Shown here piece by piece: positions 50,608 through 63,228 of a stretch of 64,000 nucleotides of DNA. The stretch is from Candidatus Poriferihabitaceae bacterium (lineage in GTDB: Bacteria > Pseudomonadota > Gammaproteobacteria > Arenicellales > Poriferihabitantaceae), in NCBI GenBank assembly GCA_965226545.1, contig OZ245364.1, positions 1,771,890-1,835,889 of the forward strand. The letters are read 5' to 3'. Numbering within the stretch: position 1 is the stretch's first letter; every line of letters starts with the position of its first letter. Position numbers and translations under genes: made by a program. The notes beneath the pieces were generated by a model. That model saw nothing but the letters and a program-made list of their open reading frames with translations. It was not told the DNA's origin and did not search any database.

Positions 50608-51162
50608 TTAGCCGCGAGATTTCTTTTTGAGCGGTGCGTTGAGAGCCAGTTCATCCAAATGCGAATCGAGTTCGATGAATTTGGAGCAAGTTCTTTTTAG
50701 TTCGGCCGATGTTCGCGCCCAAAAAACGACTTCCACTGTAAAGCCGTCTTTGACCAACATCTCAACCGGCGGGATGAAATCGCCATCGCCGGACACCAAC
50801 AAAATTTTATGGTGTGCGGGGCCGTCGCTAACATAAGCGTCTTTAATCATGTCTTTGACGATGGAGGTATCAACGCCTTTTTCTTTATTGGCGACATTGC
50901 GGTCTCTAATTTCCAATTCAAACCCGGCGGATTTGGCGCGCGCCCACAGCGAATCATTCGGCGGCGGACGCGAACCGACCAACAACGCCCGACCAATCTC
51001 GCCATCACCGTTTTGGGTAACAAAACGGTAGAGTTTGCCAAAATCAATTTTGTAGTTGAGGTCGAGCGTTTTGCCGCTCTTGTCATTTTTCCCAATCGCC
51101 GCCGCAACACGTTGCCCTTCGATAAACAAATTGGAGTTGTCGATATAGATAAACTTTTTCAT
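50608..51162 (-). CDS. NYN-domain (LabA/PIN-like) predicted ribonuclease
   Basis: MKKFIYIDNSNLFIEG.., EKGVDTSIVKDMI, ILLVSGDGDFIPPVE. The start is trimmed to the ATG at 51162. Confidence 0.75.
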   Translation of the reverse strand: MKKFIYIDNSNLFIEGQRVAAAIGKNDKSGKTLDLNYKIDFGKLYRFVTQNGDGEIGRALLVGSRPPPNDSLWARAKSAGFELEIRDRNVANKEKGVDTSIVKDMIKDAYVSDGPAHHKILLVSGDGDFIPPVEMLVKDGFTVEVVFWARTSAELKRTCSKFIELDSHLDELALNAPLKKKSRG

Positions 51163-51200
51163 TGCGTTTACTCTCGTTGATGTTTTGCACGGTGTGGTGT

Positions 51201-51240
51201 AGAAAAACCGCGCACCATTGTTAAGTGGCGGCGCGGTTTT
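51201..51240 (-). terminator. hairpin terminator/attenuator between the small ORF and the NYN gene
   Basis: AAAACCGCGC..17 nt..GCGCGGTTTT, with a U-run on the minus strand. Confidence 0.5.
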
Positions 51241-51245
51241 GGGTG

Positions 51246-51509
51246 TCACTTATCGTCAAGCACGTTGTCCAGTGTTTCCAGATTCAACGGCAATTCTTCC
51301 ATAATTTTGGTGGCGTTATTTTCGGCGCTCCATTCGGAAAAGGCGATAATCATTTCTTTGTTTTTGCATTTTTGTTCGCTGTGTTTGCCGCCATAGTGGT
51401 CGAAGCAGTTTTGGCTGTTAATCGCCCACTTCACCAACACCCCTATGGCGCAGTCGCCCGGATTAATCGGTTTGCGGTCGTAATCGGTTTTAAGGAATTC
51501 ATCGGTCAT
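51246..51509 (-). CDS. hypothetical 87-aa protein upstream of the NYN nuclease
   Basis: A GAGGTG SD lies 6 nt before the ATG at 51509. The product is Cys/His-containing (DCAIGVLVKWAINSQNCFDHYGGKHSEQKC). Confidence 0.5.
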   Translation of the reverse strand: MTDEFLKTDYDRKPINPGDCAIGVLVKWAINSQNCFDHYGGKHSEQKCKNKEMIIAFSEWSAENNATKIMEELPLNLETLDNVLDDK

Positions 51510-51638
51510 TTGGGTCACCTCGTTTGATGTGAAGTCGGAATGGATTTTAACACAAGTGCCGCGCATAAAAAACCGCGCATGTTGTGCGCGGTTATTGGGC
51601 GGCGGTCGGCGATTCTGTTATGGCAAATCGCAGAATCA

Positions 51639-51849
51639 AGCGTTAGCGGTGCCGGCGCAAGCGTTACCGACGCTGTCATTAGCGTTAGTGACGACTCCAT
51701 TAGCGTTACTGACGCTGTCATTAGCGTTAATGGCACTCGATTAGCGTTAGTGACGCCGCCATTAGCGTTAGTGACACCACCGTTAGCGTTAGTGACGACT
51801 CCATTAGCGTTACTGGCGACTCTATTAGCGTTAGTGACGCGGCAAATCG
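51639..51849. repeat. about 10 x 21-bp tandem repeat (AGCGTTAGTGACGNNNCCATT)
   Basis: agcgttaccgacgctgtcatt agcgttagtgacgactccatt agcgttactgacgctgtcatt agcgttaatggcactcgatt agcgttagtgacgccgccatt agcgttagtgacaccaccgtt agcgttagtgacgactccatt agcgttactggcgactctatt ... Confidence 0.9.
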
Positions 51850-52000
51850 CGCTAATTTGACGGGTTTATGCGGGTTTTGGGGGGTGCGGGTGGTGGGGAA
51901 TGGCTTATGTATGCGGTTTTGGGCGAGGGCGGGGTTGGGGGTGCGCCATTTGAGTTTGTTGTTAATTGACTGTTATTGACGGCAAATACCCCACTTTTTG

Positions 52001-52029
52001 TTGACACCGCAGGCAACCGTTGGCAAAAT
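52001..52029 (+). promoter_or_regulatory. candidate sigma70 promoter driving leader A and the outer-membrane barrel gene
   Basis: TTGACA-17 nt-CAAAAT. The conserved leader begins 6 nt downstream. Confidence 0.5.
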
Positions 52030-52035
52030 CCGTTT

Positions 52036-52216
52036 CGCCAATATTTCGGAAAGTAGCCCTTTTGCGGGTTACCCGCTTTAAGTAAACGCAACATTGCTTG
52101 CCTGCGCGAGATTCATTCTCTCGCGGGCATGGACGGTTGTAGCCGCTTTCGCGGTATTGGCAACGGTTCGTCACTTCGGTGGCGGAGATTGTCAATTTTG
52201 TAACCGGAGATTTGAA
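52036..52216 (+). ncRNA. conserved structured 5' leader, copy A (candidate riboswitch or other cis-regulatory RNA)
   Basis: 181 nt. It shares blocks, helices and length with the 183-nt leader at 57049-57231 on the minus strand; see findings. Confidence 0.55.
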
Positions 52217-52837
52217 ATGTTTAAGAAACTTATTGCTGTATCGCTCGCCGCGGTTATGTCGCTTGCTTCGGCAAGTGCGTTGGCGGCGGAAGAGTATTAC
52301 GGGCTCGCTTATTCCAACATCAATTTGAATTTTGACGAATTGTTCGGCAATTCCTACAACACAGGCGATTTTTCGCTTAAAGCCATCGGGCTTACAATTG
52401 GCGAGTTCAGCGACGACAACGATTTCCTTGGCTTCGAGTTTTACATCGGCACCGGCATAGGGGAGACATCCGACGAAGGGGTGTTGAACCCCAACAGTGC
52501 TGCAAATCGTCTCGTTGCCAACCATGACTGGGAGTTAAATTATGCCGGCGGTGCAAGCATTCGGTTTGGCGCATTGCACAGTGACCGAACGGTTAATCCG
52601 TATGCGTTACTCGGTTACCACTGGATGCGCGTGGGCTTTTTGGGTGGCCCCTCCGGTAACACAATTACTGACAGGGATGGGAGCCAAACGGATGAGGTGA
52701 TTCTGGTCGGCACATCGTATGGCATAGGTGTCAACATCGGGCAAGACGATGTTCACTTGGGCCTTAAGTACGTCGGTTACGGCTTTGAATACGTGGAAGC
52801 CAATTCGGTGCAGGCTGAACTCGTTTGGAGTTTTTAA
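52217..52837 (+). CDS. small outer-membrane beta-barrel protein (OmpW/OMP_b-brl-like)
   Basis: Signal peptide MFKKLIAVSLAAVMSLASASALA, alternating beta-strand pattern, and C-terminal ..ELVWSF (terminal Phe). A GGAGA SD is present. Confidence 0.75.
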   Translation: MFKKLIAVSLAAVMSLASASALAAEEYYGLAYSNINLNFDELFGNSYNTGDFSLKAIGLTIGEFSDDNDFLGFEFYIGTGIGETSDEGVLNPNSAANRLVANHDWELNYAGGASIRFGALHSDRTVNPYALLGYHWMRVGFLGGPSGNTITDRDGSQTDEVILVGTSYGIGVNIGQDDVHLGLKYVGYGFEYVEANSVQAELVWSF

Positions 52838-52868: not shown

Positions 52869-52896
52869 GCCCCGTCTGCAGGCGGGGCTTTTTTTT
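52869..52896 (+). terminator. rho-independent terminator after the barrel gene
   Basis: GCCCCG-tctgcagg-CGGGGC followed by TTTTTTTT. Confidence 0.8.
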
Positions 52897-52968: not shown

Positions 52969-53274
52969 TTAGTTTCGGCAATACACTCGCGCTTGTTGCG
53001 GCGTGAAAATGCCAAAGGTGATGGCACCAAGCAGACCGTTAATAAACGTGGTTTGCGTTTCCACACGGACAATGTTGTCGTCCCCTCCGCAAATTTCGCC
53101 GGGGTCGATGTTTTTTTGTTGCCCAAGCCCGCTGATGAAATAAGGCTGCGCACGGTCGTAAGTCGCAACCGCCCCATCCGAATTCTCTTGCAGGTTGAAC
53201 TTGGTTTGTGCGCACCCGGCAAGCCAGATGGCACAAAATACTGCAATCACTTTAAAAATGCTTTGGTATTTCAT
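52969..53274 (-). CDS. Bor/Iss-family outer-membrane lipoprotein (phage lambda Bor homologue)
   Basis: Lipobox LAGC. FISGLGQQKNIDPGEICGGDDNIVRVETQTTFINGLLGAITFGIFTPQQARVYC matches, from memory, lambda Bor FVSGIGQKKTVDAAKICGG..VKTETQQTFVNGLLGFITLGIYTPLEARVYC. Confidence 0.8.
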   Translation of the reverse strand: MKYQSIFKVIAVFCAIWLAGCAQTKFNLQENSDGAVATYDRAQPYFISGLGQQKNIDPGEICGGDDNIVRVETQTTFINGLLGAITFGIFTPQQARVYCRN

Positions 53275-53415
53275 TGGAACCTCTACATTGATGAAGATTG
53301 AAATTTGCGGCAAACGCCGCGCGGGTAAAACAAAGGTCAAGGGCGGCGATGTTGCCATTGCCGCCGTGGGTAACTGATTTTGGATGGTGCGTTGGTTGGG
53401 GGTGGTTGAATCGTA

Positions 53416-54741
53416 TTAATCAACGTAGACCCTTACACCGTCCGAGCAATTGTTGGAACGGTCGGTGTCGTCAGTGTCATCCACGCAAGCCCCGTAATAT
53501 TGGGAGCCGCGCCAATAAACTGTAAAGGAATATTGTTCATCGTCAGTTTCCCCGGGAGCGAGCGCATCCACTTCGTCATACCTGCTGAGAGGTGTGTCAC
53601 TCGACGATATGTAGGAGTTGGTCGAACGGTAATATGTGACCCGAGTGTCAAGTGGTGATTTGCCGCCGCCTGAAGCATTGCGGACTGTTACCGTAAGTCT
53701 GAGTGTGCTACCGTAATCCACGGTGTAGTAAGTGGTTGTGCCATTAATTTCAAAATCTTCCGCCACCAAATCCCATTCACTGTCCTTTACGACGACTTTC
53801 ACGCCGGGATTCCGACAATCATTTGTGCCGTCGGAATCGTCGCGGTCGTCCACGCACACGCCATAGTAGTAAGTGCCGGGAGTGTCCGGGGCATCCACAT
53901 CTATGTCTTCGTCGCGATTGCGGCCCGGTGAAATTCTGTAAATTCTGTCAGACCCAACACTGGTATCGCCCCTTGTTATCTCGTCATTTGGCGAACGATA
54001 GTATCTTATCCGGACATAACCATCCCAATCCGCCGTAGAGCCTCGGCTATTTTCGATTGTCGTCGAAAGGGTGATTTCCTCACCCGGATAAGGGTTTACG
54101 TTATCCACCTCAAAGGCGATTGGGCGTAAATCCCATTCGCCTTCTTCTTCGGTCTCGCTCTGCTCTGTAGATGGGGTGCCGCCACCGCCACCGCCGCCGC
54201 CACCGCCGCCGCCCGAGTCACTGGCGGCAGCGTACGAAATGGTTACACCGTAAGCCCCGCCGGGACCGCCCGGTTCACTGACCACACCCAATTTAAAAGT
54301 GGGGGCGCTAGTATCGGCGTTAGCGTAAACAAAACTGAAGTTCGTGCCTGTGCCGCTATTGTCATCGGCAACAAGGCTGTTGCTGAAGTCGCTGAGAACG
54401 TTGTTGGGGTACAGACTGCCGACTGTGTCGGTTGCCCCCGTGCTCCAGACATGAAATTCGCCTGCGCTACCTGACATAGGCCGAAATCGAAACCAATCGA
54501 GGTCGTTGCTACCAAGCACCCCAGTTGCGTAGGCAACGCCGCTACTGGCCCCAACCCAAGTGGCGTATTCATGGTTTTGGCTGTGGTCATCACCAGGGTC
54601 AAGATTGGGGTCAATGACGGCAACATTTTCAGCACCGCCAGAATCGCCGCCACCAGAATCACTGTCGCTACTGCCACTGCTACTGCAAGCAGTAACAGCG
54701 GCGATTGCGAAAATGAGGAAAATAATTTTGAGAAGTTTCAT
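53416..54741 (-). CDS. lipoprotein: PPC (pre-peptidase C-terminal)-like domain, poly-Gly linker, two CARDB-like repeats
   Basis: Lipobox VTAC. The PPC-like region has DLDWFRF..GEFHVWSTGATDT..GAYGVTISY. About 12 Gly follow, then two roughly 115-aa repeats starting EWDL.. and ending ..YYG.CVDD.DD.D..N.C. Confidence 0.7.
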   Translation of the reverse strand: MKLLKIIFLIFAIAAVTACSSSGSSDSDSGGGDSGGAENVAVIDPNLDPGDDHSQNHEYATWVGASSGVAYATGVLGSNDLDWFRFRPMSGSAGEFHVWSTGATDTVGSLYPNNVLSDFSNSLVADDNSGTGTNFSFVYANADTSAPTFKLGVVSEPGGPGGAYGVTISYAAASDSGGGGGGGGGGGGTPSTEQSETEEEGEWDLRPIAFEVDNVNPYPGEEITLSTTIENSRGSTADWDGYVRIRYYRSPNDEITRGDTSVGSDRIYRISPGRNRDEDIDVDAPDTPGTYYYGVCVDDRDDSDGTNDCRNPGVKVVVKDSEWDLVAEDFEINGTTTYYTVDYGSTLRLTVTVRNASGGGKSPLDTRVTYYRSTNSYISSSDTPLSRYDEVDALAPGETDDEQYSFTVYWRGSQYYGACVDDTDDTDRSNNCSDGVRVYVD

Positions 54742-54777
54742 TGCGAGTTGCTCCAAAGTGGTGAATGCACAATTTGG

Positions 54778-55686
54778 CTATTGGCCAGGGCAGGTTAGGC
54801 TGCGACGTATGGTTGCGGCGCCGGGAGTTACGTCATAACAACAACTACTACAACTTTGGTCGCCGTCGATGCCAACGCCCCAGGAAATTGAGGTGCCGCG
54901 AATTTCTGCCCCATAGCAGATGTCGCCTGTGAGACCATCGACATTAAGGGAGACGCCAATGGTGTCGCCGACTGTATTGGCATTGTTCGTTGTGTAGACT
55001 TGGCCACTGGAAGGCCAACTGGCGTACCGAGAACTTACGCTAGATGTGCGGTAAGCGAAAAATCGTGCATTCAACGCCCCGTGAACTGCACAATTGTCAG
55101 TGAGTTCAAAACGCATTCCCGTGTTGCCGCCGCCGCCGCCACCGCCGCCACCACCACCGCCTGAACTGGCATAAGCGTAAGAAACGGTTAAGCCATAAGC
55201 CCCGGTGCTACTGCTGTGACCACGCACCCGTATTCGGAAAGTAACGTTACTGGCGGCTGGGTTGGTGTAAGTAAAACTGAAATTGCTGCTTGAGCCGTCA
55301 TCATCGTCGGACGCAAGGGCTGATGCGGAGGTACTGGAACTGTTGTACATATCACCTAATGTGTCGGTTGACCCGGTGCTCCAGACGTGCATTGTTCCCG
55401 CACTACCTGCCGGAACCCAAAATCCAAACCAATCTTCGTCACCAGACACCTCAATGTTGCCGCTTGCGCGGCCAACATTGCCGCTGAAGACTACTGCTGA
55501 GGTGTATCGACGGTTGTTGCTGTGGTCATCGCCGGCACCAAGATTGGGGTCGATGGTGGCGACGCTATTCCCAGCGCCGCCGCCACCGCCACTGCTTGAA
55601 TCACTGCTACCACCACTGCTACTACAACCAGCAACAGCGGCGGCTAACAGCGCAATGAGAATAAGATTGATAATTTTCATTGTCAT
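54778..55686 (-). CDS. lipoprotein: paralogous PPC-like domain, poly-Gly linker, Cys-rich C-terminal domain
   Basis: Lipobox VAGC. DEDWFGFWVPAGSAGTMHVWSTGSTDT..GAYGLTVSY is collinear with the 53416 product. 12 Gly follow, then an unrelated 120-aa Cys-containing domain. Confidence 0.7.
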   Translation of the reverse strand: MTMKIINLILIALLAAAVAGCSSSGGSSDSSSGGGGGAGNSVATIDPNLGAGDDHSNNRRYTSAVVFSGNVGRASGNIEVSGDEDWFGFWVPAGSAGTMHVWSTGSTDTLGDMYNSSSTSASALASDDDDGSSSNFSFTYTNPAASNVTFRIRVRGHSSSTGAYGLTVSYAYASSGGGGGGGGGGGGNTGMRFELTDNCAVHGALNARFFAYRTSSVSSRYASWPSSGQVYTTNNANTVGDTIGVSLNVDGLTGDICYGAEIRGTSISWGVGIDGDQSCSSCCYDVTPGAATIRRSLTCPGQ

Positions 55687-55695
55687 TCCCCCAAA

Positions 55696-57048
55696 TCAAA
55701 GCGCGTCAACGCGCACCGCAACCTTGCGGACAACATTCATCTCACCGTTAAAAAGAAGTTGCGCAGTAACAACCGCACTAACCTCACCGGCGGGGATAAC
55801 AACATCAATCGGCGTAGCGTCAAAATCGACGCCGGCAACGGCGGCGTTTTCGACATTGGGGGAAACCAAACGCACTTGCAGAGGCGTATCGGCGGATGCA
55901 ACTTGCGGCAAGGTAACCTCGATATCCAAAGTGCCGCCGTTGCCGGTGCGCTTTTGCAAAAATTGCGCGGTGATGCCGTTGGCTTGGGTGAACACTTGCG
56001 GGGTAACTTCGCGCCGCGACACTTCGATTCTGCCGTCTGAAGTAATCGGTGCAAAATCATCGTTGCCGGCGAAACTGCGCGAGGTGAAATTCAATTGCGG
56101 CTTGCCTTTGGCGGTGCGCCCATTGCCAAACAGATATTTGTAACTCACAAGCGCGCCAAAATCGCCGTCGTTGCCGATGCCGCCAAGCCGCAATCCATAC
56201 AAGCCATTGGTGCGCGGCGATTGATAATCCAGACCAAGTTGTGCGGAAGTTACAAAATCGCCGCTGCCGTCGGTGCGTTCGCTATGCGTGAAGGCGATAT
56301 TGCCGATGGCGGTTTTGCTGAATACGCGATTGACCGAGAGGACGGTTTTTTCAATCGGGCGTTCGTAATAATCGCCGACAATGCGCTCATCGCTAAGCGG
56401 CATAAAATGTTCGATTTGGAATGCATTGGCGTTGTAAATCCGTTCGAATCCCAAGCGAAGACGGCGGTGACCGTATTCGGCGTTTTCCTGTCCATACGCC
56501 CAAAACCCCGAGCGTTGATAATTCGCGCCATTGGTTTCGCCAAAACGGAATACGCCGCCATAACGCAAATCGTTGCGGTCGATATTGGCGGAATCTTGAT
56601 AGCGGGTGTTGCCGAATTGCAAAAACAGTGCGCGGCTTGCATTTGGATTGGCGGACGCCGCCAAAGACAGCGGCATAACGGCATCCAAATCACCGGCAAT
56701 GCCGCGCTCGTCGTCATACTGCAACGACGAATGCGCGCGCATATCTTGTCCGGTTAACCGGTTTGCAAGTGCAATCGCTTTATTTGCACCGGCGGAAAAT
56801 GCAACGCGGCTTATGCTTTGTTGCAGTTTGCGCCCCGCCGTTTCAAGCGTTTGCTCAATCGCTTGTTCGGCATCGTCGGCATCGGCAAACGAAGACGACA
56901 TTTGCAAAATGCCAAGCGGAAGTTTTGTTACCTCTTGGGTAATTAAATCGCGAATCAAAACGCCGTCTTGTGCAGAAACACTGTGGGTGACGGCCATGCC
57001 ACTGAATGCAATGCACCAAGCGGCACAAATGCGGGTAATGCGTTTCAT
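55696..57048 (-). CDS. inverse-autotransporter (intimin/invasin-type) beta-barrel protein with a short Calx-beta-like passenger
   Basis: Signal peptide MKRITRICAAWCIAFSGMAVTHSVSA. Barrel motifs LFLQFGNTRY, YGHRRLRLGFERIY.....IEHFMPLSDE....DYYERP parallel intimin HRRWGLG.E.....L..N.Y..LSGW....DYEERPA. The C-terminal roughly 100 aa has AGVDFD...VVIPAGE (Calx-beta-like). Confidence 0.65.
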   Translation of the reverse strand: MKRITRICAAWCIAFSGMAVTHSVSAQDGVLIRDLITQEVTKLPLGILQMSSSFADADDAEQAIEQTLETAGRKLQQSISRVAFSAGANKAIALANRLTGQDMRAHSSLQYDDERGIAGDLDAVMPLSLAASANPNASRALFLQFGNTRYQDSANIDRNDLRYGGVFRFGETNGANYQRSGFWAYGQENAEYGHRRLRLGFERIYNANAFQIEHFMPLSDERIVGDYYERPIEKTVLSVNRVFSKTAIGNIAFTHSERTDGSGDFVTSAQLGLDYQSPRTNGLYGLRLGGIGNDGDFGALVSYKYLFGNGRTAKGKPQLNFTSRSFAGNDDFAPITSDGRIEVSRREVTPQVFTQANGITAQFLQKRTGNGGTLDIEVTLPQVASADTPLQVRLVSPNVENAAVAGVDFDATPIDVVIPAGEVSAVVTAQLLFNGEMNVVRKVAVRVDAL

Positions 57049-57231
57049 CGTAATGCTCCGAATGAGATTGGCAACCCCCGACACCGAAGTGTCGGGCCTT
57101 TGCCAATATCACGGAAAGCAGAGTGAAATCCCCGCCTATTCGCACCACGCGAGCAGGACTCGCGCGGCGAAAAAACGCTGTTGTATTTGGCGGGTAACCC
57201 GACCAAGGGCTACTTTCCGGAAATATTGGCG
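57049..57231 (-). ncRNA. conserved structured 5' leader, copy B (candidate riboswitch or other cis-regulatory RNA)
   Basis: 183 nt on the minus strand, between the predicted -10 and the inverse-autotransporter ATG. Homologous to 52036-52216. Confidence 0.55.
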
Positions 57232-57237
57232 AGGCGG

Positions 57238-57266
57238 AATATACAAAACAAAACCGACAACCGCAA
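57238..57266 (-). promoter_or_regulatory. candidate sigma70 promoter driving leader B and the inverse-autotransporter operon
   Basis: The minus strand reads TTGCGG-17 nt-TATATT. The conserved leader begins 6 nt downstream, the same geometry as copy A. Confidence 0.5.
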
Positions 57267-57277
57267 GCGAAAAATCG

Positions 57278-57301
57278 AAAAAAAAAGCGGCTTTCGCCGC
57301 T
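57278..57301 (-). terminator. rho-independent terminator after mutL
   Basis: The minus strand reads AGCGGC-gaaa-GCCGCT followed by TTTTTTTTT. Confidence 0.8.
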
Positions 57302-57343
57302 AATCGCCCAAGCCAAAATCAACCAAACACCCAACCAACAACC

Positions 57344-59245
57344 TCACCGCCCCCGCATAAACCATTTATCAATCTCCCCAAGCGAAACCCGCATCCAAGT
57401 CGGGCGACCGTGATTGCATTGTCCGGCGCGTTCGACTTGTTCCATTTGGCGCAACAGCGCATTCATTTCGATGTGGGTGAGTTTGCGGTTGGCGCGAATC
57501 GAGCCGTGGCAGGCGGCGGTCGATAAAATTTCATGTTGCGCGTTTTCGATTCGTTGGCTGCTGCCGTGCGCGATTAAATCGGCGAGTGCATCGCGAATCA
57601 ATTCGGCGATATCCAAATTGGCGAGCAATTCCGGCGCGGCGCGGATGATGAGTTGTTCGTCGCCGACCATCTCCATATCAAAACCAATCTCGTTAAATTG
57701 CGCGCCAAACAGCATAGCGGCTTCGGCTTCATCCGGGTTGACGACCACGGCAATCGGCACCAACAACGGTTGACTGGACGGATTTTTTTCGCCCGCTTGG
57801 CGTTTTAAGGTTTCATAAGTAATGCGTTCATGCGCGGCATGCATATCGACCATCACCAAACCATCGGCGTTTTCGGCGAGGATGTACGCGCCTTTAAGTT
57901 GCGCCAATGCATACCCCATCGGCGGAATTTCCGCGCCGTCAGTTTCGACCCAAGCGTCGCCCATCGATTCGCGCGAAGCATTATCGACGCCGCCAACATT
58001 GCCGGCGAATGCATCGGCTGAGCGATGTAACTCACCGTAAGGTTGCAGTTGCTCGGCAACCGACAGATGATGTTGGCGATGATTGGTTGGATAGAAAAAT
58101 GGTTTTGATGATGACGGTGACGACGGTGACAGTGACTGTGCCGACGCCGCCAACGCCGCATCAGGTGTCGGCAGATTAACCGCGCCATCGCCGACTGCAA
58201 GGTTGGCGATAACTCGATGCAGCGTTCGATAAATATAATCCTGCACCGCGCGCATCTCGCGAAATCTGACTTCGGTTTTTGCCGGATGCACATTAACATC
58301 GACCAAGTTCGGCGCAATTTGCAAAAACAACACAAACGCCGGATGCCGTCCGTGATACAGCACATCGTTATAAGCGCGGCGCACCGCATGCGCGATTAAA
58401 TAATCGCGCACCGCGCGTTGATTAACAAAAAAATGCTGCATGTCGCGTTGGCTGCGCGAGAAAGTCGGCAAACCAATCCACCCTTGCAACTGCAATGCAC
58501 CGGCATGGTCGTCGACGGCGACACTTTGTTCGGCAAACGGCGCGCCGCAAATCGCCGCCAACCGCGCGCGGCGTTGTGCATCATCATTGGCGGCGCGCGC
58601 GTGAAACAGCGTTTTGCCGTCGTGGGCGAATTCGATTTCGATTTGTTCATGCGCCAATGCGATGCGGCGCACGACTTCCTGCATGTATTTTAATTCGGTG
58701 CGTTCGCTGCGCATAAACTTGCGCCGCGCCGGCGTGTTGTAAAACAACTCGGCGACTTCAATCGTCGTGCCCGGCGGATGTGCCGCGGGTTTGAGTTCGC
58801 CGAATTGTCCGCCGTCGCAGGTGATACTGCAGGCGTGTGCGGCATCGGCGATGCGCGAGGTTAATGTCAAACGCGACACGGCGGCGATGCTCGGCAAGGC
58901 TTCGCCGCGAAAACCGAGCGTGGTGATGTTGTATAAATCGTCGAAGCGATTTAGTTTGCTGGTGGCGTGGCGCGACAATGCAAGCCGCGCGTCGACTTCG
59001 GCGATGCCGCCGCCGTTGTCCTGCACGACCACGCGCTTAAAGCCGCCGCTTTCGGTTCGTATGCGAATGTGGGTTGCGCCGGCGTCGACGCTGTTTTCCA
59101 ATAATTCCTTTAACAACGACGCCGGGCGTTCAATCACTTCGCCGGCGGCGATTTGATTGATGAGTTTGTCATCCAACTGCACAATTCCACCACGCGCGGA
59201 TGCGGGCGGGGCGACGGATTGGGCGGCGGTGCGCGACATTGGCAA
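57344..59245 (-). CDS. mutL: DNA mismatch repair protein MutL
   Basis: LINQIAAGEVIERPASLLKELLENSVDAGA (GHKL N-box), DNGGGI, LGFRGEAL, and a C-terminal dimerisation domain. Confidence 0.95.
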   Translation of the reverse strand: MPMSRTAAQSVAPPASARGGIVQLDDKLINQIAAGEVIERPASLLKELLENSVDAGATHIRIRTESGGFKRVVVQDNGGGIAEVDARLALSRHATSKLNRFDDLYNITTLGFRGEALPSIAAVSRLTLTSRIADAAHACSITCDGGQFGELKPAAHPPGTTIEVAELFYNTPARRKFMRSERTELKYMQEVVRRIALAHEQIEIEFAHDGKTLFHARAANDDAQRRARLAAICGAPFAEQSVAVDDHAGALQLQGWIGLPTFSRSQRDMQHFFVNQRAVRDYLIAHAVRRAYNDVLYHGRHPAFVLFLQIAPNLVDVNVHPAKTEVRFREMRAVQDYIYRTLHRVIANLAVGDGAVNLPTPDAALAASAQSLSPSSPSSSKPFFYPTNHRQHHLSVAEQLQPYGELHRSADAFAGNVGGVDNASRESMGDAWVETDGAEIPPMGYALAQLKGAYILAENADGLVMVDMHAAHERITYETLKRQAGEKNPSSQPLLVPIAVVVNPDEAEAAMLFGAQFNEIGFDMEMVGDEQLIIRAAPELLANLDIAELIRDALADLIAHGSSQRIENAQHEILSTAACHGSIRANRKLTHIEMNALLRQMEQVERAGQCNHGRPTWMRVSLGEIDKWFMRGR

Positions 59246-59391
59246 AGTATCGACCGAATCAACAGTGATTGCAAGCGAGGGTTAAGGCGTGTTGGTGGTG
59301 GCGGCGTTTGTAGTCGATGCGCTTGCGAAGTTAATTAAAGTGGTGCGCATTAATATCGCTGCGTAACTTTGTTAAATAACTTGTTGCGCAT

Positions 59392-59646
59392 TTATTTATT
59401 GTGCAATTCGAAGGGCACAACAAACGCGGTTAAACCGTGTTGTTTAATAGTGTTACTTACATAGTGTTGGTTAATGATGGCTTTTAAATAATGACGGGTT
59501 TCGAAGTTGTTATACAACGCCATCGCGCGCAAATATTGTTGCGCAACATCGAGAAACCCAGCATCGCCTTCAAGATTCGATACAAAACCAACGCGCATTG
59601 CACCAAAAGGCGATTGATGTTTTCCAATAATTTTTACACTACTCAT
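59392..59646 (-). CDS. hypothetical 84-aa protein
   Basis: Track ORF in an AT-rich gap between amiB and mutL. No recognisable domain and no obvious SD. Confidence 0.3.
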   Translation of the reverse strand: MSSVKIIGKHQSPFGAMRVGFVSNLEGDAGFLDVAQQYLRAMALYNNFETRHYLKAIINQHYVSNTIKQHGLTAFVVPFELHNK

Positions 59647-59917
59647 TTATGCAATGCGTATACAAATGCGCGCGAATCAAATTAAAGGTGTGCGTTGCCT
59701 TATGCGCGAATACAATTCACTTCTCAAGCGAACACGAATCGACAGTGAACTGAGAAGGTACACCATGATTAATGTGAGAGACAAACTGAAATGTGTAGTG
59801 GCAAATAAATTGCCAAACAAAGTGACGAAAAAAATGACAAACACAAGCACATGCAACACAACACCGCAAATGCGAAAAAAGGAACGCAATGAATTGCTCA
59901 ACAAAATACGCATCGTC

Positions 59918-61114
59918 TTAACGCCCGCCGTAGCGATTTGGGTTTTGCGCGACATAACGTTTGATGCCGTTGACAATCGCGCCGGCGATGCGCGTTTGAT
60001 GTTTGCTGTTGCGCAATAATTTTTCCTCGCGCGGATTGGTGATGTAGGCGGTCTCGACCAAAATCGATGGAATCTCCGGCGACTTCAACACCGCAAACCC
60101 GGCGCGTTCGACGCGCGGACTGTGCACTGCGCCGATTTTTTTTAATTCCGCCAACACCGCCGCGCCAAAGTTGTGCGATTCTTTCGAGGCGATTGTCATC
60201 GACATATCGCGCAACGAGAAGGCGACATCATCCTCCTTATCCGCCAAACTAACCGCGCCGATTAAGTCGGCGGCGTTTTCCTTGTTGGCAAGCCATTTCG
60301 CATTTTCACTGCTGGCGCCGCGCAACGATAATGCATACACCGATGCGCCGCGCGCGCGTGAATTTTTAAATGCATCGGCATGCAGCGACACAAACAAATC
60401 CGCGCCGAGCGAATGCGCGATGCGAATCCGTTTGCGCAGCGGCACATAATAATCGCCGCGCCGCGTCAATTCGGCGCGCATATTGCGCTGGCGATTAATC
60501 GCGGCTTGCAGTCGTTTGGCGATGACCAACACCACCGCCTTTTCATGCGTATGCCGCCCGCTTGCGCCGGGGTCTTCGCCGCCGTGTCCGGGGTCTATCA
60601 CGACCAACAACTTGCCCTTGGGTTTTTTGCCGCGCGATGTTGCAATGCGCGGCTTGCTTGGTTTGCGCGGCTTGGCGTCGCGCGGATAAAAATCCACAAC
60701 CAATCGATAGCGATACGGTTTGCGCGGCGTGAGCATCTGCACTTCATAGCGAAGCGATTTGCGCAAATCGAAAACCAATCGCGCGCGCCCGGCGTGGTCG
60801 CCCGCGCGAATTGCGCGAATGAATTGCCCAACTTTATCCGGCGACGGAATGCTTGCATCGACGCGCGCGTTTTGCAGGTCGACGACAATGCGGTCCGGTT
60901 TCTTTAAATGAAAAACATTAAACGCCGCGCGTTGGTCGAGGTCGAACACAATGCGCGAACGTTGCGGCGCATGCCACATTCGAATGTCGCCAATCGTCGC
61001 GACATCGTTTTGCCCGACCGCCGGCGCGGCGATTGCACCGAGCGCGATGCATAACAACATCGCCGGGCACCGAAACATTGCGCGTGTGCGTCGAGTATTA
61101 ATCGTATGCAACAT
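59918..61114 (-). CDS. amiB: N-acetylmuramoyl-L-alanine amidase (AmiB/AmiC type, AMIN domain plus Amidase_3)
   Basis: VVIDPGHGGEDPGA, SLHADA. The position between tsaE and mutL matches E. coli amiB. Confidence 0.9.
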   Translation of the reverse strand: MLHTINTRRTRAMFRCPAMLLCIALGAIAAPAVGQNDVATIGDIRMWHAPQRSRIVFDLDQRAAFNVFHLKKPDRIVVDLQNARVDASIPSPDKVGQFIRAIRAGDHAGRARLVFDLRKSLRYEVQMLTPRKPYRYRLVVDFYPRDAKPRKPSKPRIATSRGKKPKGKLLVVIDPGHGGEDPGASGRHTHEKAVVLVIAKRLQAAINRQRNMRAELTRRGDYYVPLRKRIRIAHSLGADLFVSLHADAFKNSRARGASVYALSLRGASSENAKWLANKENAADLIGAVSLADKEDDVAFSLRDMSMTIASKESHNFGAAVLAELKKIGAVHSPRVERAGFAVLKSPEIPSILVETAYITNPREEKLLRNSKHQTRIAGAIVNGIKRYVAQNPNRYGGR

Positions 61115-61117
61115 TTT

Positions 61118-61543
61118 TTATGGTTGACGGATATGCACTTGACGCTGCCCGTTTTCGATGCAGTGAATCGACACTTCGACATCGGCCGGCGGCAACTGTC
61201 CGGCGGCGCGTTGCGGCCATTCAATCAACATCAAATTAGCATCGGTTATTAAATCGCGAAACCCGAGCATCTCCAATTCGGCCGGGGCGCGCAATCGATA
61301 TAAATCGAGATGATAAACATCGCCGGCGCGCAACGGATAATGTTCGCATAAAGTGTAAGTCGGGCTCGGCGTTGCGCCGTGATGCCCCAACGCCGCCAAC
61401 ACCCCGCGCGCAAACGTGGTTTTGCCGACGCCCAACGCACCGCGCAAAAACACCAGCGCATCGCCGCGCTCGACAAATTGCCGCGCACAACGCATGCCGA
61501 GTGCGTGCATAGATTGTTCGGTTGGCGCGGAAAATTCCTGCAT
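61118..61543 (-). CDS. tsaE: tRNA t6A biosynthesis ATPase TsaE
   Basis: LRGALGVGKTTFARGV, SPTYTL...Y, HLDLYRL, and WPQRA (variant of the conserved EWPE). Confidence 0.9.
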   Translation of the reverse strand: MQEFSAPTEQSMHALGMRCARQFVERGDALVFLRGALGVGKTTFARGVLAALGHHGATPSPTYTLCEHYPLRAGDVYHLDLYRLRAPAELEMLGFRDLITDANLMLIEWPQRAAGQLPPADVEVSIHCIENGQRQVHIRQP

Positions 61544-61722
61544 GGCGCGCCGATTTTAACATTGCCGCGCGCGACGTGTTGCATCATTGTTGCATCGTCG
61601 TTGCATTGTCGATAGGTTGTCGATGTGTTGTCAATGTGTTGTCGATGCGTCGACGATGCATCGGACATCATACGGTGCACAGTGCAATTGACGCGGCGAC
61701 ACAATAGTAAAGACGACAACCG

Positions 61723-63228
61723 TTACACTTCGCCTTGACATTCGCGCAACACCGTCGGCAACGCATCGATTACATCGCCCGCCAGCAAGCCGCGTTCGCC
61801 GCGCGTCTGCACCGCAACATCGGCGGCGCGCGCATGCAACCACACCGCAGATTCGGCGGCGGCAAGTGGCGCATCGCCTTGGGCAAGTTGCGCGGCCAGC
61901 AAGCCGGTCAACACATCGCCCATGCCGGCCGATGCCATGCCCGGATTGCCGAGGATGCACACCTGCGCGCTTGTGCCGTCACTAATCAAAGTGCCCGCGC
62001 CTTTTAATACGCACACCCCGCCATACCGCGCGGCAATCGCATGCGCGGCGGTCAATCTGTCGGCTTGCACTTCGCCGACCGTGGCGTCGAGCAATCGCGC
62101 CGCTTCGCCGGGATGCGGGGTGAGCAACCAATCATCGCGGCGGCGCCCGGTGCGCGCCAAATGATTCAAGCCGTCGGCGTCGACAACCATGCCGGCTTTG
62201 GTATCGACATCGCCATCGACAAACTGCGCAAACACCCGCGCGCTCCACGCGCTTTGCCCCAGCCCGGGGCCGAGTGCAACCACATCCGCCGGCGGCGCAT
62301 CAGAGAGCGCATCAACGCTCATTAACTCGGCGCGATGCAAGGCGATTTGCGCGCAATGCGCCGCGCAGGTTGCAATCGTCACCAAGCCGGCGCCGCCGCG
62401 CAACGCCGCCCGCCCGGACAACAACGTTGCTCCAAGCATGCCGACATCGCCGCCGACCACCAGCACGCGCCCGGCGTCGCCTTTATGCATGCTCGGCGCG
62501 CGCTTGCGCAGACGCGGTGCGCGCAGGATTCGCGCGCAAGGCGCAACCACTTCACGCGCCGCGCGCGGAATGTTGAGGTCGGCAAAGACCAAATCGCCGG
62601 CGACATCGCGACCGCTTGCGGTCAACAACCCCAACTTGACGCCGATGAAGGTGACCGTGACATCGGCCTGCACGCACGGCGCAAATGCAACGCCGGTGTC
62701 GGCGCACAACCCGGACGGCAAATCCAATGCAAGCACCGCACAATCGGCGCGGTTGATGCAATCGATTAACGCGGCCGCGTCACCTTCAGGCGCGCGCCGC
62801 AAGCCGGTGCCGAACAATGCATCGACAATCACTTCGGCTTCGTCAATCGCTTTATGTTGCGCGGCGCGGTCGCGCACGATGACGCCGCCGGCGGTTTGGT
62901 AGTCCTCAGCGCAGGCGCGCGCATCGACGCCGCGCGGCGCGCCAATGGCGAGCGCGCGAGTCGGCACGCCGATTTGTTGCGCGCACGATGCAACGACATA
63001 ACCGTCGCCGCCGTTGTTGCCGGCGCCGCACACCACGACCAAGTTGGCGGCGCCGCCAAAGCGCATCATCATTGCATCGAACGCCGCCCGTCCGGCGCGG
63101 CGCATTAATTCACCGCCGCTGACCGCGTGGTGTTGCATCACAATGCGGTCGAGTTCGCGCGTTTGCGCGGCTTGATAAACTTCGTCGGGGAGCATAAACC
63201 TGCGTGGTTGAAACTGTGGCGGATGCAT
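61723..63228 (-). CDS. nnr: bifunctional NAD(P)H-hydrate epimerase/dehydratase Nnr (YjeF)
   Basis: CGAGNNGGDGYV (YjeF-N) and HKGDAGRVLVVGG..GNPGMASAGMGDVLTG (YjeF-C). Confidence 0.9.
   Translation of the reverse strand: MHPPQFQPRRFMLPDEVYQAAQTRELDRIVMQHHAVSGGELMRRAGRAAFDAMMMRFGGAANLVVVCGAGNNGGDGYVVASCAQQIGVPTRALAIGAPRGVDARACAEDYQTAGGVIVRDRAAQHKAIDEAEVIVDALFGTGLRRAPEGDAAALIDCINRADCAVLALDLPSGLCADTGVAFAPCVQADVTVTFIGVKLGLLTASGRDVAGDLVFADLNIPRAAREVVAPCARILRAPRLRKRAPSMHKGDAGRVLVVGGDVGMLGATLLSGRAALRGGAGLVTIATCAAHCAQIALHRAELMSVDALSDAPPADVVALGPGLGQSAWSARVFAQFVDGDVDTKAGMVVDADGLNHLARTGRRRDDWLLTPHPGEAARLLDATVGEVQADRLTAAHAIAARYGGVCVLKGAGTLISDGTSAQVCILGNPGMASAGMGDVLTGLLAAQLAQGDAPLAAAESAVWLHARAADVAVQTRGERGLLAGDVIDALPTVLRECQGEV

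Follow-up and report, generated by a model that had tools for sequence, protein, structure and literature searches.

Why do two convergent outer-membrane transcription units of one sponge-associated bacterium begin with what looks like the same untranslated leader? The question is raised by a stretch of 64,000 nucleotides (nt) of Candidatus Poriferihabitaceae bacterium (contig OZ245364.1; the whole stretch is called the window below), in which a leader on the plus strand (leader A) precedes a gene for an outer-membrane protein (OMP) beta-barrel and a leader on the minus strand (leader B) precedes an operon headed by an inverse-autotransporter gene. An initial inspection of this DNA, called here the sequence-only reading, had proposed a novel structured cis-regulatory RNA, and this proposal is supported by the analysis reported here: the leaders match no Rfam family, and a third copy (copy C) has been found with clear compensatory changes in its helices. 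The best explanation, which we favour with moderate confidence, is that leaders A and B belong, as paralogues, to a previously undescribed family of structured 5' untranslated RNA, which would act as a cis-acting translational switch co-regulating the adhesin operon and the gene of the small outer-membrane barrel.

Aligned from the predicted start to the ATG (184 nt in A, 186 nt in B), the two leaders share identical blocks, a matching length and the same 7-nt spacing between the Shine-Dalgarno (SD) sequence and the ATG, which bears out the initial claim of one leader of about 180 nt before two outer-membrane units. As had also been described, both start 6 nt past the -10 hexamer with CGCCAATATTTC(C)GGAAAGTAGCCCTT followed by CGGGTTACCCGC, and further identical blocks (GCGCGAG, (G/A)TATTGGCAA, CACTTCGGTG, TTG(T/C)CAAT and CGGAG) extend to the initiation region. 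Two of the blocks, of 27 and 12 nt, are 100% identical, and a 1-nt indel lies at the centre of a TTTC(C)GGAAA palindrome. The hairpins and the 3' end read as previously reported: CGCGAG(A)-loop-(T)CTCGCG is present in both leaders with loops of 7 and 5 nt, the first hairpin (P2) has an identical stem and a different loop, the stems of a UUCG-capped hairpin differ and both pair (UUCGUCAC/GUGGCGGA versus CCCGACAC/GUGUCGGG), and the leaders end with (G/A)TATTGGCAA, this hairpin, TTG(T/C)CAAT, GGAG, 7 nt and the ATG. Outside these elements, similarity between A and B is at chance level, both upstream and in the coding regions and over most of the centre; the central segments had rightly been called unconserved (local alignment z = 1.4), the P3 stem being the exception. 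The shared sequence is highly specific, since shuffled sequences yield an expectation of 0 chance matches for the 25-nt 5' block and nhmmer recovers only the two leaders in the window (E = 1e-54 and 5e-56), where a full covariance-model scan with filters off found no third copy. Both leaders fold far better than their own dinucleotide shuffles (z = -4.2 and -4.9), and column-shuffled versions of the A/B alignment fold much worse than the alignment itself (z = -6.4 for the whole leader, -7.9 for its 3' part).

Regarding the fold, the helices and ends described by the sequence-only reading are confirmed; what it had not seen is that the ends pair with each other over a long range and that the 3' strand of this pairing could base-pair with the SD region as well. 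Strand 1 (GCCAAUAUU, a small pyrimidine loop and (C)GGAAAG) pairs with strand 2 (CUUUC(CG)-loop-G(G/A)UAUUGGC) about 110 nt downstream, AUAUUGGC lying opposite GCCAAUAUU, to form P1, a helix of 14-16 base pairs (bp) that encloses P2, P2a and P3 and begins at nt 2 of the predicted transcript in copies A, B and C (the transcription start sites being predicted from promoter hexamers). Compared with shuffles, the strand 1:2 duplex is exceptionally stable, with -17.8 kcal/mol in A (z = -4.3) and -21.9 kcal/mol in B (z = -6.4). P1 closes a three-way junction made of hairpin P2 (UAGCCC/GGGUUA) and the long arm P2a (CCCGC/GCGGG), which carries the GC-rich hairpin P3; the junction segments of this core are ACAGCGUUUUU and GCGAAU..GGAAUUUCACU. 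Downstream of P1 follow the UUCG-capped hairpin P4, strand 3 (UUGYCAAU), the SD and the AUG. Leader A alone has a complementarity between AAUAUUUC of strand 1 (52040-52047) and GAAAUGUU across the start codon (52214-52221), and for this reason its minimum-free-energy fold pairs the 5' end with the initiation region rather than forming P1; this start-codon pairing is conserved in neither B nor C.

Copy C was found through homologues of the inverse autotransporter with a covariance model built from the two window copies only, of which it covers the full length (41.4 bits, E ~1e-10; the E-values are rough, the model having had a shortened calibration). It occupies positions 1305-1500 of locus L097, which are identical DNA to 9805-10000 of L098, on a 528-kb metagenomic contig; it is a single copy in 21 kb of its genome, lies 6 nt past a TTGACA-16-TAAATT promoter, and stands directly upstream of an inverse-autotransporter gene whose product is 34% identical, followed by a He_PIG/CARDB protein. 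The organism is probably an Arenicellales relative well separated from that of the window, because its contig shares with the metagenome-assembled genome (MAG) OY843749.1 a repeat of about 200 nt at an identity of about 90% or higher. The repeat itself (L098 19371-19545; L055 20782-20955 and 14961-15067, the latter two copies lying in the 21.8-kb mutL locus of this MAG) is palindromic and non-coding, and it looks like an element of the miniature inverted-repeat transposable element (MITE) or repetitive extragenic palindromic (REP) type, unrelated to the leader; its hairpin gives a weak match to the model (E = 0.013).

The comparison of B with C carries the structural argument. P1a reads GCCAAUAU/AUAUUGGC in B and GCAUAGAU/AUCUAUGC in C, and P1b CGGAAAG/CUUUCCG in B and CAAAAGG/CCUUUUG in C, so that within P1 six pairs have changed on both sides and none is broken; a simple estimate for the 12 substitutions in 6 complete pairs all leaving complementary partners is ~3e-7. 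P2a has undergone one compensatory exchange (C-G to U-A), and the register of P3 is kept in C despite a largely different sequence. In a MAFFT alignment of the three copies, 94.4% of the cells of P1, P2 and P4 are paired, with 8 double changes, a result reached by 2 of 500 shuffles. An alignment fitted to the model, which leans towards structure, contains 40 pairs, 92.4% paired, with 11 double changes distributed over P1, P2a, P3 and P4 (0 of 500 shuffles), compared with 40-45% paired in slid controls. RNAalifold also predicts P1, P2, P2a, P3 and P4 de novo from the three sequences. Since there are only three of them, formal covariation statistics are weak; the search for covarying homologues that had been recommended has yielded one homologue, in another organism (L098/L097), with clear compensatory change. 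Judged by these alignments, a conserved structured RNA exists. As for its novelty, the Rfam comparison recommended at the outset did not reassign the leader to a known family: among the 4227 models of Rfam 15, with membership defined as a score at or above the family's gathering score, none matches anywhere in the window. At E <= 10, leaders A and C have no match and leader B has two chance matches (11.2 and 9.8 bits against cut-offs of 35.6 and 37.8; E ~9).

Compensatory changes in the helices exclude purely DNA-level explanations, in which the two copies would serve as inverted repeats for a 5.2-kb inversion (a promoter swap), as terminal remnants of a mobile island or as operators of a regulator. 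What invites such a view is that the copies, inverted relative to each other, mark the outer ends of a 5.2-kb island not found beside mutL in relatives, that the 27-nt and 12-nt blocks show no difference at all, and that there is a weak trace of the mutL 3' end and its terminator having been duplicated with leader A. The helices of the single copy C are nevertheless maintained by compensation, which only RNA or single-strand structure explains; moreover, no recombinase or transposase lies nearby, target-site duplications are absent, conservation reaches the SD with fixed spacing, and the indel falls on the very centre of the palindrome. We therefore consider a function at the DNA level very improbable. 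Three specific forms of it were rejected. A MITE/REP-type element would have many dispersed copies with terminal inverted repeats, placed without regard to gene starts; here the window holds two copies and the 21 kb around copy C one, each with an SD and an ATG 7 nt beyond its end, and 1.37 Mb of related DNA holds none. An invertible promoter or shufflon was set aside as the neighbouring open reading frames (ORFs) contain no recombinase domain, the promoters lie outside the repeats and the L098 homologue is single-copy. The reading of TTGGCAA/TTGCCAA as a sigma-54 site or operator was dismissed by eye, the spacings being unconserved and the intervening hairpin covarying.

The trace upstream of leader A deserves its own description. 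Between 51862 and 51998 are found GGTTTATGCGGG...GGTG... and a decayed copy of GCGGCGAAAGCCGC-T-run, both of which resemble the 3' end of mutL and the terminator that precede leader B (57269-57360, minus strand). The resemblance is weak (local z = 2.5, 9 of 300 shuffles; global z = 1.6, with 1 of 124 genomic background segments scoring as high). It hints, on sequence likeness, that a module consisting of the mutL end, terminator, promoter and leader may have been duplicated in inverted orientation; homology of the two upstream regions, suggestive and not significant, was set aside.

How could such an RNA act? Strand 2 is complementary to a second partner, namely strand 3 and the SD (AUUGGCAA:UUGYCAAU; CGG/UGA:UUG/UCA; UUYCG:CGGAG). 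In this alternative fold, all 30 pairs form in both A and B, 3 of them changed on both sides and 5 on one side; the corresponding shuffle test gives 73 of 500, significance being impossible with two sequences. Across A, B and C, the helix between SD and anti-SD is 100% paired and the adjoining helix 91% paired, and the strand 2:3 duplexes have energies of -11.9, -17.9 and -13.5 kcal/mol, respectively (z = -2.3, -5.5 and -1.9). Copy C is instructive: its anti-SD has changed from UUCCG to UUUUG (CC to UU in strand 2), a change forced by covariation with strand 1 that weakens the pairing with the SD, and it has a longer SD, GGAGGG, for which strand 2 supplies two new Cs as partners. Copy C also gains pairs in GUGAU/AUCAC, and the total of 2:3 pairs stays near 16. 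On these modelled pairings, an alternative covering the SD is thus plausible and is preserved in outline. The two folds are isoenergetic in leader B (-82.3 versus -82.6 kcal/mol) and 4.7 kcal/mol apart in leader A, and prefix folding of growing transcripts lets P1 form once strand 2 is made. A local 5' hairpin (strand 1 with CCG..AARUA) was also considered as a fourth switch strand and set aside, being only 75% paired across the three copies.

That the alternation of strand 2 is used for regulation we infer from these models. With P1 closed, the 5' end would be buried and the SD unpaired or engaged in no more than a weak local hairpin; with P1 open, strands 2 and 3 would form an irregular hairpin of about 16 bp around P4, in which the SD would be buried. 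The stability of the mRNA would probably be affected as well, and the inverse-autotransporter operon and the barrel gene would come under one control. Several results weigh against such a switch. The P1 duplex is worth -18 to -22 kcal/mol, a very high stability; copy C loses 3 of the 8 central 2:3 pairs, and its P1-closed fold is favoured over the SD-sequestered one by 12.6 kcal/mol, so that at equilibrium copy C would hardly ever switch unless an active factor intervened. Each of the three copies also allows a weak local hairpin between the SD and the tail of strand 3, which makes it uncertain that the P1-closed state is the 'on' state. Three sequences, contributed by two organisms, make up the evidence and also served in part to derive the structure; the transcription starts are predictions. 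In addition, other inverse-autotransporter loci (L001, L093, L094 and L099-L104) have no such leader (the upstream DNA of L095 and L096 is too short for a call), and duplex scanning of the window found no small RNA (sRNA) or other trans-acting partner beyond the leaders themselves.

Part of this evidence would suit a static structured leader that does not switch, a stabiliser or processing element of the mRNA with its 5' end locked in P1 or with P1 as the target of RNase III; that strand 2 can pair with the SD region would then be incidental or a mere folding aid. P1 is the best-supported and most stable helix and starts at the second nucleotide of the predicted transcript in all three copies, and in copy C the SD-covering fold is far less stable and its central 2:3 helix is not maintained. 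Such a leader would, however, leave unexplained why all three copies preserve the pairing between SD and anti-SD, in C with the help of a longer SD, why the number of 2:3 pairs holds steady although their distribution shifts, and why leader B is bistable by energy; nor would a stabiliser need conserved junctions, which are nonetheless 84% identical between B and C. We regard a static leader as possible and rather unlikely, and keep the translational switch as the more probable account.

The pattern of conservation bears on what a switch might sense. Between the orthologues B and C, identity is 64% in the helices and 84% in the junctions; between the paralogues A and B, it is 84% in the helices and only 45% in the junctions, and A and C share 47% of junction positions, while the hairpin loops vary among all copies. 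On these sequences, the B-C figures are what an RNA with an important unpaired core usually shows. The A-B pattern would mean either that the core of copy A is relaxed or altered or that the helix sequences are tied by a shared partner or by gene conversion; it gives mild support to a trans-acting RNA or protein as input and is evidence against one shared pocket for a small ligand. Our best guess is therefore a trans-acting RNA or protein recognising the P1/P2 sequences, since these are identical in the two copies of the same genome, where the junctions have diverged. As P1 forms once strand 2 is transcribed, the nascent 5' half or strand 1 would be the most plausible target of an effector.

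The same data can be read as a metabolite or second-messenger riboswitch, in which the junction closed by P1 would be the aptamer and a ligand would stabilise P1, free the SD and turn translation on. In that case it would be a new class, whose junction binds a small signal (e.g., a cyclic dinucleotide or a host-derived metabolite) to switch on the translation of an intimin-like adhesin system of sponge-symbiotic Arenicellales, leader A being a variant with an altered pocket. Two generic features of a riboswitch are indeed found, namely a structured domain with covariation (in three sequences) and a mutually exclusive expression platform involving the SD, strand 2 pairing either with strand 1 or with strand 3 and the SD. 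The architecture is that of a translational ON switch, with an aptamer-like domain whose P1 3' strand is the anti-SD; between the orthologues, covarying helices accompany well-conserved junctions, no regulator gene is linked to either locus, and adhesin genes are classical targets of cyclic-di-GMP riboswitches. Yet a P1 of this length would form without any ligand, leader A keeps the helices with junctions so different from those of B as to be unexpected for a shared pocket, every hairpin loop varies, the motif comes from two organisms only, and no riboswitch model is similar at E <= 10. A ligand-binding riboswitch, in either wording, thus appears doubtful to us, and a trans-acting input to the switch remains our preferred guess.

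Other modes of leader-based control were considered and rejected. An RNA thermometer (ROSE, FourU) finds no Rfam match, and the computed energy gap between the ON and OFF folds hardly moves over the range of 20 to 42 C (leader A, about -5.2 to -4.5 kcal/mol; leader B, about 0 to +0.5); leader A has a U-rich local SD hairpin. A leader-peptide attenuator would rely on the short ORFs in the 3' halves of the leaders (52129-52203, plus strand, 24 amino acids (aa); 57206-57045, minus strand, 53 aa), but these differ in start (ATG in the shorter, TTG in the longer), length and frame context. Their common peptide stretch reflects only shared nucleotides, the compensatory changes in P4 are non-synonymous, and the stop codon of the 53-aa ORF overlaps the ATG of the gene as ATGA. 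As to terminator-based attenuation, no terminator was called in A or B, and a U-run after the 3' hairpin is present only in A.

Among known systems, translational riboswitch platforms (adenine add, SAM-II-type) are alike in having a domain closed by P1 whose 3' strand alternatively pairs with the SD region, with covarying helices and junctions conserved between orthologues; they differ by their usual P1 of 4-8 bp, compared with 14-16 bp here, and the present leaders moreover have divergent paralogue junctions and no Rfam match. The Escherichia coli rpoS leader is likewise a long 5' untranslated region (UTR); its control depends on strand competition and not on a terminator, an upstream strand masking the SD until a competitor frees it. 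The sRNAs DsrA, RprA and ArcZ open its cis inhibitory stem together with Hfq, whereas here the competing strand, strand 1, is built into the leader, and there is no sequence similarity. The stabilising 5' UTR of E. coli ompA resembles our leaders, if their predicted starts hold, as a long OMP leader paired almost from its first nucleotide, from which protection against 5'-end-dependent decay is expected; it consists of local hairpins, lacks a 110-nt long-range helix and an anti-SD alternative, and shows no homology. In the hok mRNA (tac/fbi), the MS2 maturation-gene leader and cspA, mutually exclusive long-range pairings of the 5' region also set SD access and the order of transcription matters, but these systems depend on processing, a kinetic window or temperature, and here the ON-OFF gap barely responds to temperature. 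Finally, GEMM-I/II cyclic-di-GMP riboswitches also place surface adhesin genes under a cis-acting structured leader; neither model matches here, and the tetraloop-receptor (GEMM-I) and pseudoknot (GEMM-II) architectures are absent. We rate the leader as a new RNA family with a design known from translational riboswitch platforms and rpoS-type inhibitory leaders. Many orphan leader motifs of a similar sort exist.

Searches for further relatives were negative. The exact pattern GGAAAGTAGCCCN{4,8}GGGTTACC has 0 matches in 185,579 species genomes (a collection without the window's own genome) and 0 in viral contigs; the metagenome pattern GCCAATATN{3,5}GGAAAGTAGCC gave 17 matches, all of them by chance in unrelated sequence, where nhmmer found nothing. 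Both patterns were too strict, as copy C differs at pattern positions. No match to the leaders was obtained by blastn in plasmid and phage records, no copy was present in 1.37 Mb of related DNA, and neither the leader nor the genes of the island were found in the mutL neighbourhoods of 72 relatives (1.23 Mb). A circular symbiont genome of 2.79 Mb (L104, 5322-10411) has genes for an OMP_b-brl protein, an inverse autotransporter and a 1017-aa protein in one operon, which fits a functional link between the two kinds of gene that are separately transcribed in the window. This operon has a short leader that lacks the motif and is flanked by ankyrin-repeat/DUF805 genes; its barrel has no detectable similarity to that of the window (BLASTP E = 0.31).

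The coordinates of the leaders, their parts and the genes they precede are collected in Table 1. By promoter scan, the promoter of leader A ends 6 nt ahead of the conserved block, which is also the distance of TATATT in leader B, whose promoter falls below the threshold of the scan because of its weak -35. The barrel protein has no homologue among 5.8 billion proteins. As for the 450-aa protein, it is itself below the Pfam reporting level and has about 100 representative relatives; PF11924 (IAT_beta) is matched by 27 of 36 homologues, and a profile of the family hits the beta domains of both intimin (4e1s, E = 8e-8) and invasin (4e1t). These two results justify the label 'inverse autotransporter' that the sequence-only reading had given it, at the level of the family.

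Table 1. Features of the two leaders and of the transcription units that they precede (positions in the window).
Feature	Position	Strand	Description
Leader A	52036-52216	+	181-nt 5' UTR of the OMP beta-barrel gene
Leader A, strand 1	52037-52053	+	P1 5' strand; GCCAAUAUU (P1a), internal loop, GAAAG (P1b)
Leader A, P2 hairpin	52054-52071	+	UAGCCC-UUUUGC-GGGUUA
Leader A, P2a	52073-52136	+	CCGCU/GGACGG; encloses variable junction and P3
Leader A, P3 hairpin	52105-52125	+	CGCGAGA-UUCAUUC-UCUCGCG
Leader A, strand 2	52146-52163	+	P1 3' strand, alternative anti-SD; CUUUCGCGGUAUUGGCAA
Leader A, P4	52167-52186	+	UUCG-capped hairpin
Leader A, strand 3	52189-52209	+	UUGUCAAU ... CGGAG; SD GGAG 52206-52209; complementary to strand 2
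Leader B	57049-57231	-	183-nt 5' UTR of the inverse-autotransporter operon
Leader B, strand 1	57213-57230	-	GCCAAUAUU (P1a, 57230-57222), loop UC, CGGAAAG (P1b, 57219-57213)
Leader B, core	57131-57212	-	P2 57212-57195; P3 57168-57144
Leader B, P2a	57194-57189 with 57136-57131	-	CCCGCC/GGCGGG
Leader B, strand 2	57100-57118	-	P1 3' strand, anti-SD; CUUUCCGUGAUAUUGGCAA
Leader B, P4	57077-57096	-	UUCG-capped hairpin
Leader B, strand 3	57056-57074	-	UUGCCAAU..UCA..CGGAG; SD GGAG 57059-57056
Predicted sigma-70 promoter of leader A	52001-52029	+	TTGACA-17-CAAAAT, TG-extended, 10/12 matches
Predicted promoter of leader B	57232-57268	-	-35 TTGCGG, weak; -10 TATATT 57243-57238; read from sequence
mutL terminator	57301-57286	-	Terminator scan; leader B promoter directly after
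OMP beta-barrel gene	52217-52837	+	206 aa, signal peptide; PF13505 OMP_b-brl, Pfam E = 3e-7
Leader-B operon	52969-57048	-	Four genes: inverse autotransporter and three lipoproteins
Inverse autotransporter	57048-55696	-	450 aa; first gene of the operon
Lipoprotein	55686-54778	-	Second gene; glycine-rich linker
CARDB lipoprotein	54756-53416	-	Third gene; glycine-rich linker
Bor-like lipoprotein	53358-52969	-	129 aa; fourth gene; PF06291, E = 3e-25
Leader-B operon terminator	52956-52927	-	Strong; faces the barrel gene's terminator at 52869-52888

In the window, the surface-protein island stands directly after mutL, in a conserved gammaproteobacterial gene order of nnr (YjeF), an amidase (AMIN + Amidase_3) and mutL (57344-63228, minus strand). 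MutL, whose best match (66% identity) is in MAG OY843749.1, places the bacterium among sponge-associated Arenicellales; the 5-kb island beside mutL is found in 0 of the 72 relatives' mutL neighbourhoods. A gene for an NYN-domain protein (PIN-like, a predicted ribonuclease; 50608-51249, minus strand; PF01936, E = 2e-18) adjoins the island, and the leaders are conceivable substrates of its product. About 180 nt upstream of the leader A promoter lies a tandem array (51618-51857) of ~9-11 copies of a 21-nt unit (consensus AGCGTTAGTGACG.CTCCATT, 77-82% matches), which looks non-coding or decayed because only short, frame-broken ORFs cross it.

To our knowledge, almost nothing has been learnt about gene regulation in uncultured sponge symbionts. 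Inverse autotransporters of the intimin/invasin type, together with the co-encoded repeat-domain lipoproteins, are likely host-contact factors, and a common leader RNA on two surface-protein units would mean that their synthesis is coordinated after the start of transcription. For RNA biology, the gain is a candidate family with an unusually long closing helix that would double as anti-SD, and for the symbiont, an RNA of 180 nt, amenable to work in vitro or in E. coli, would offer a concrete handle towards the signal controlling host contact.

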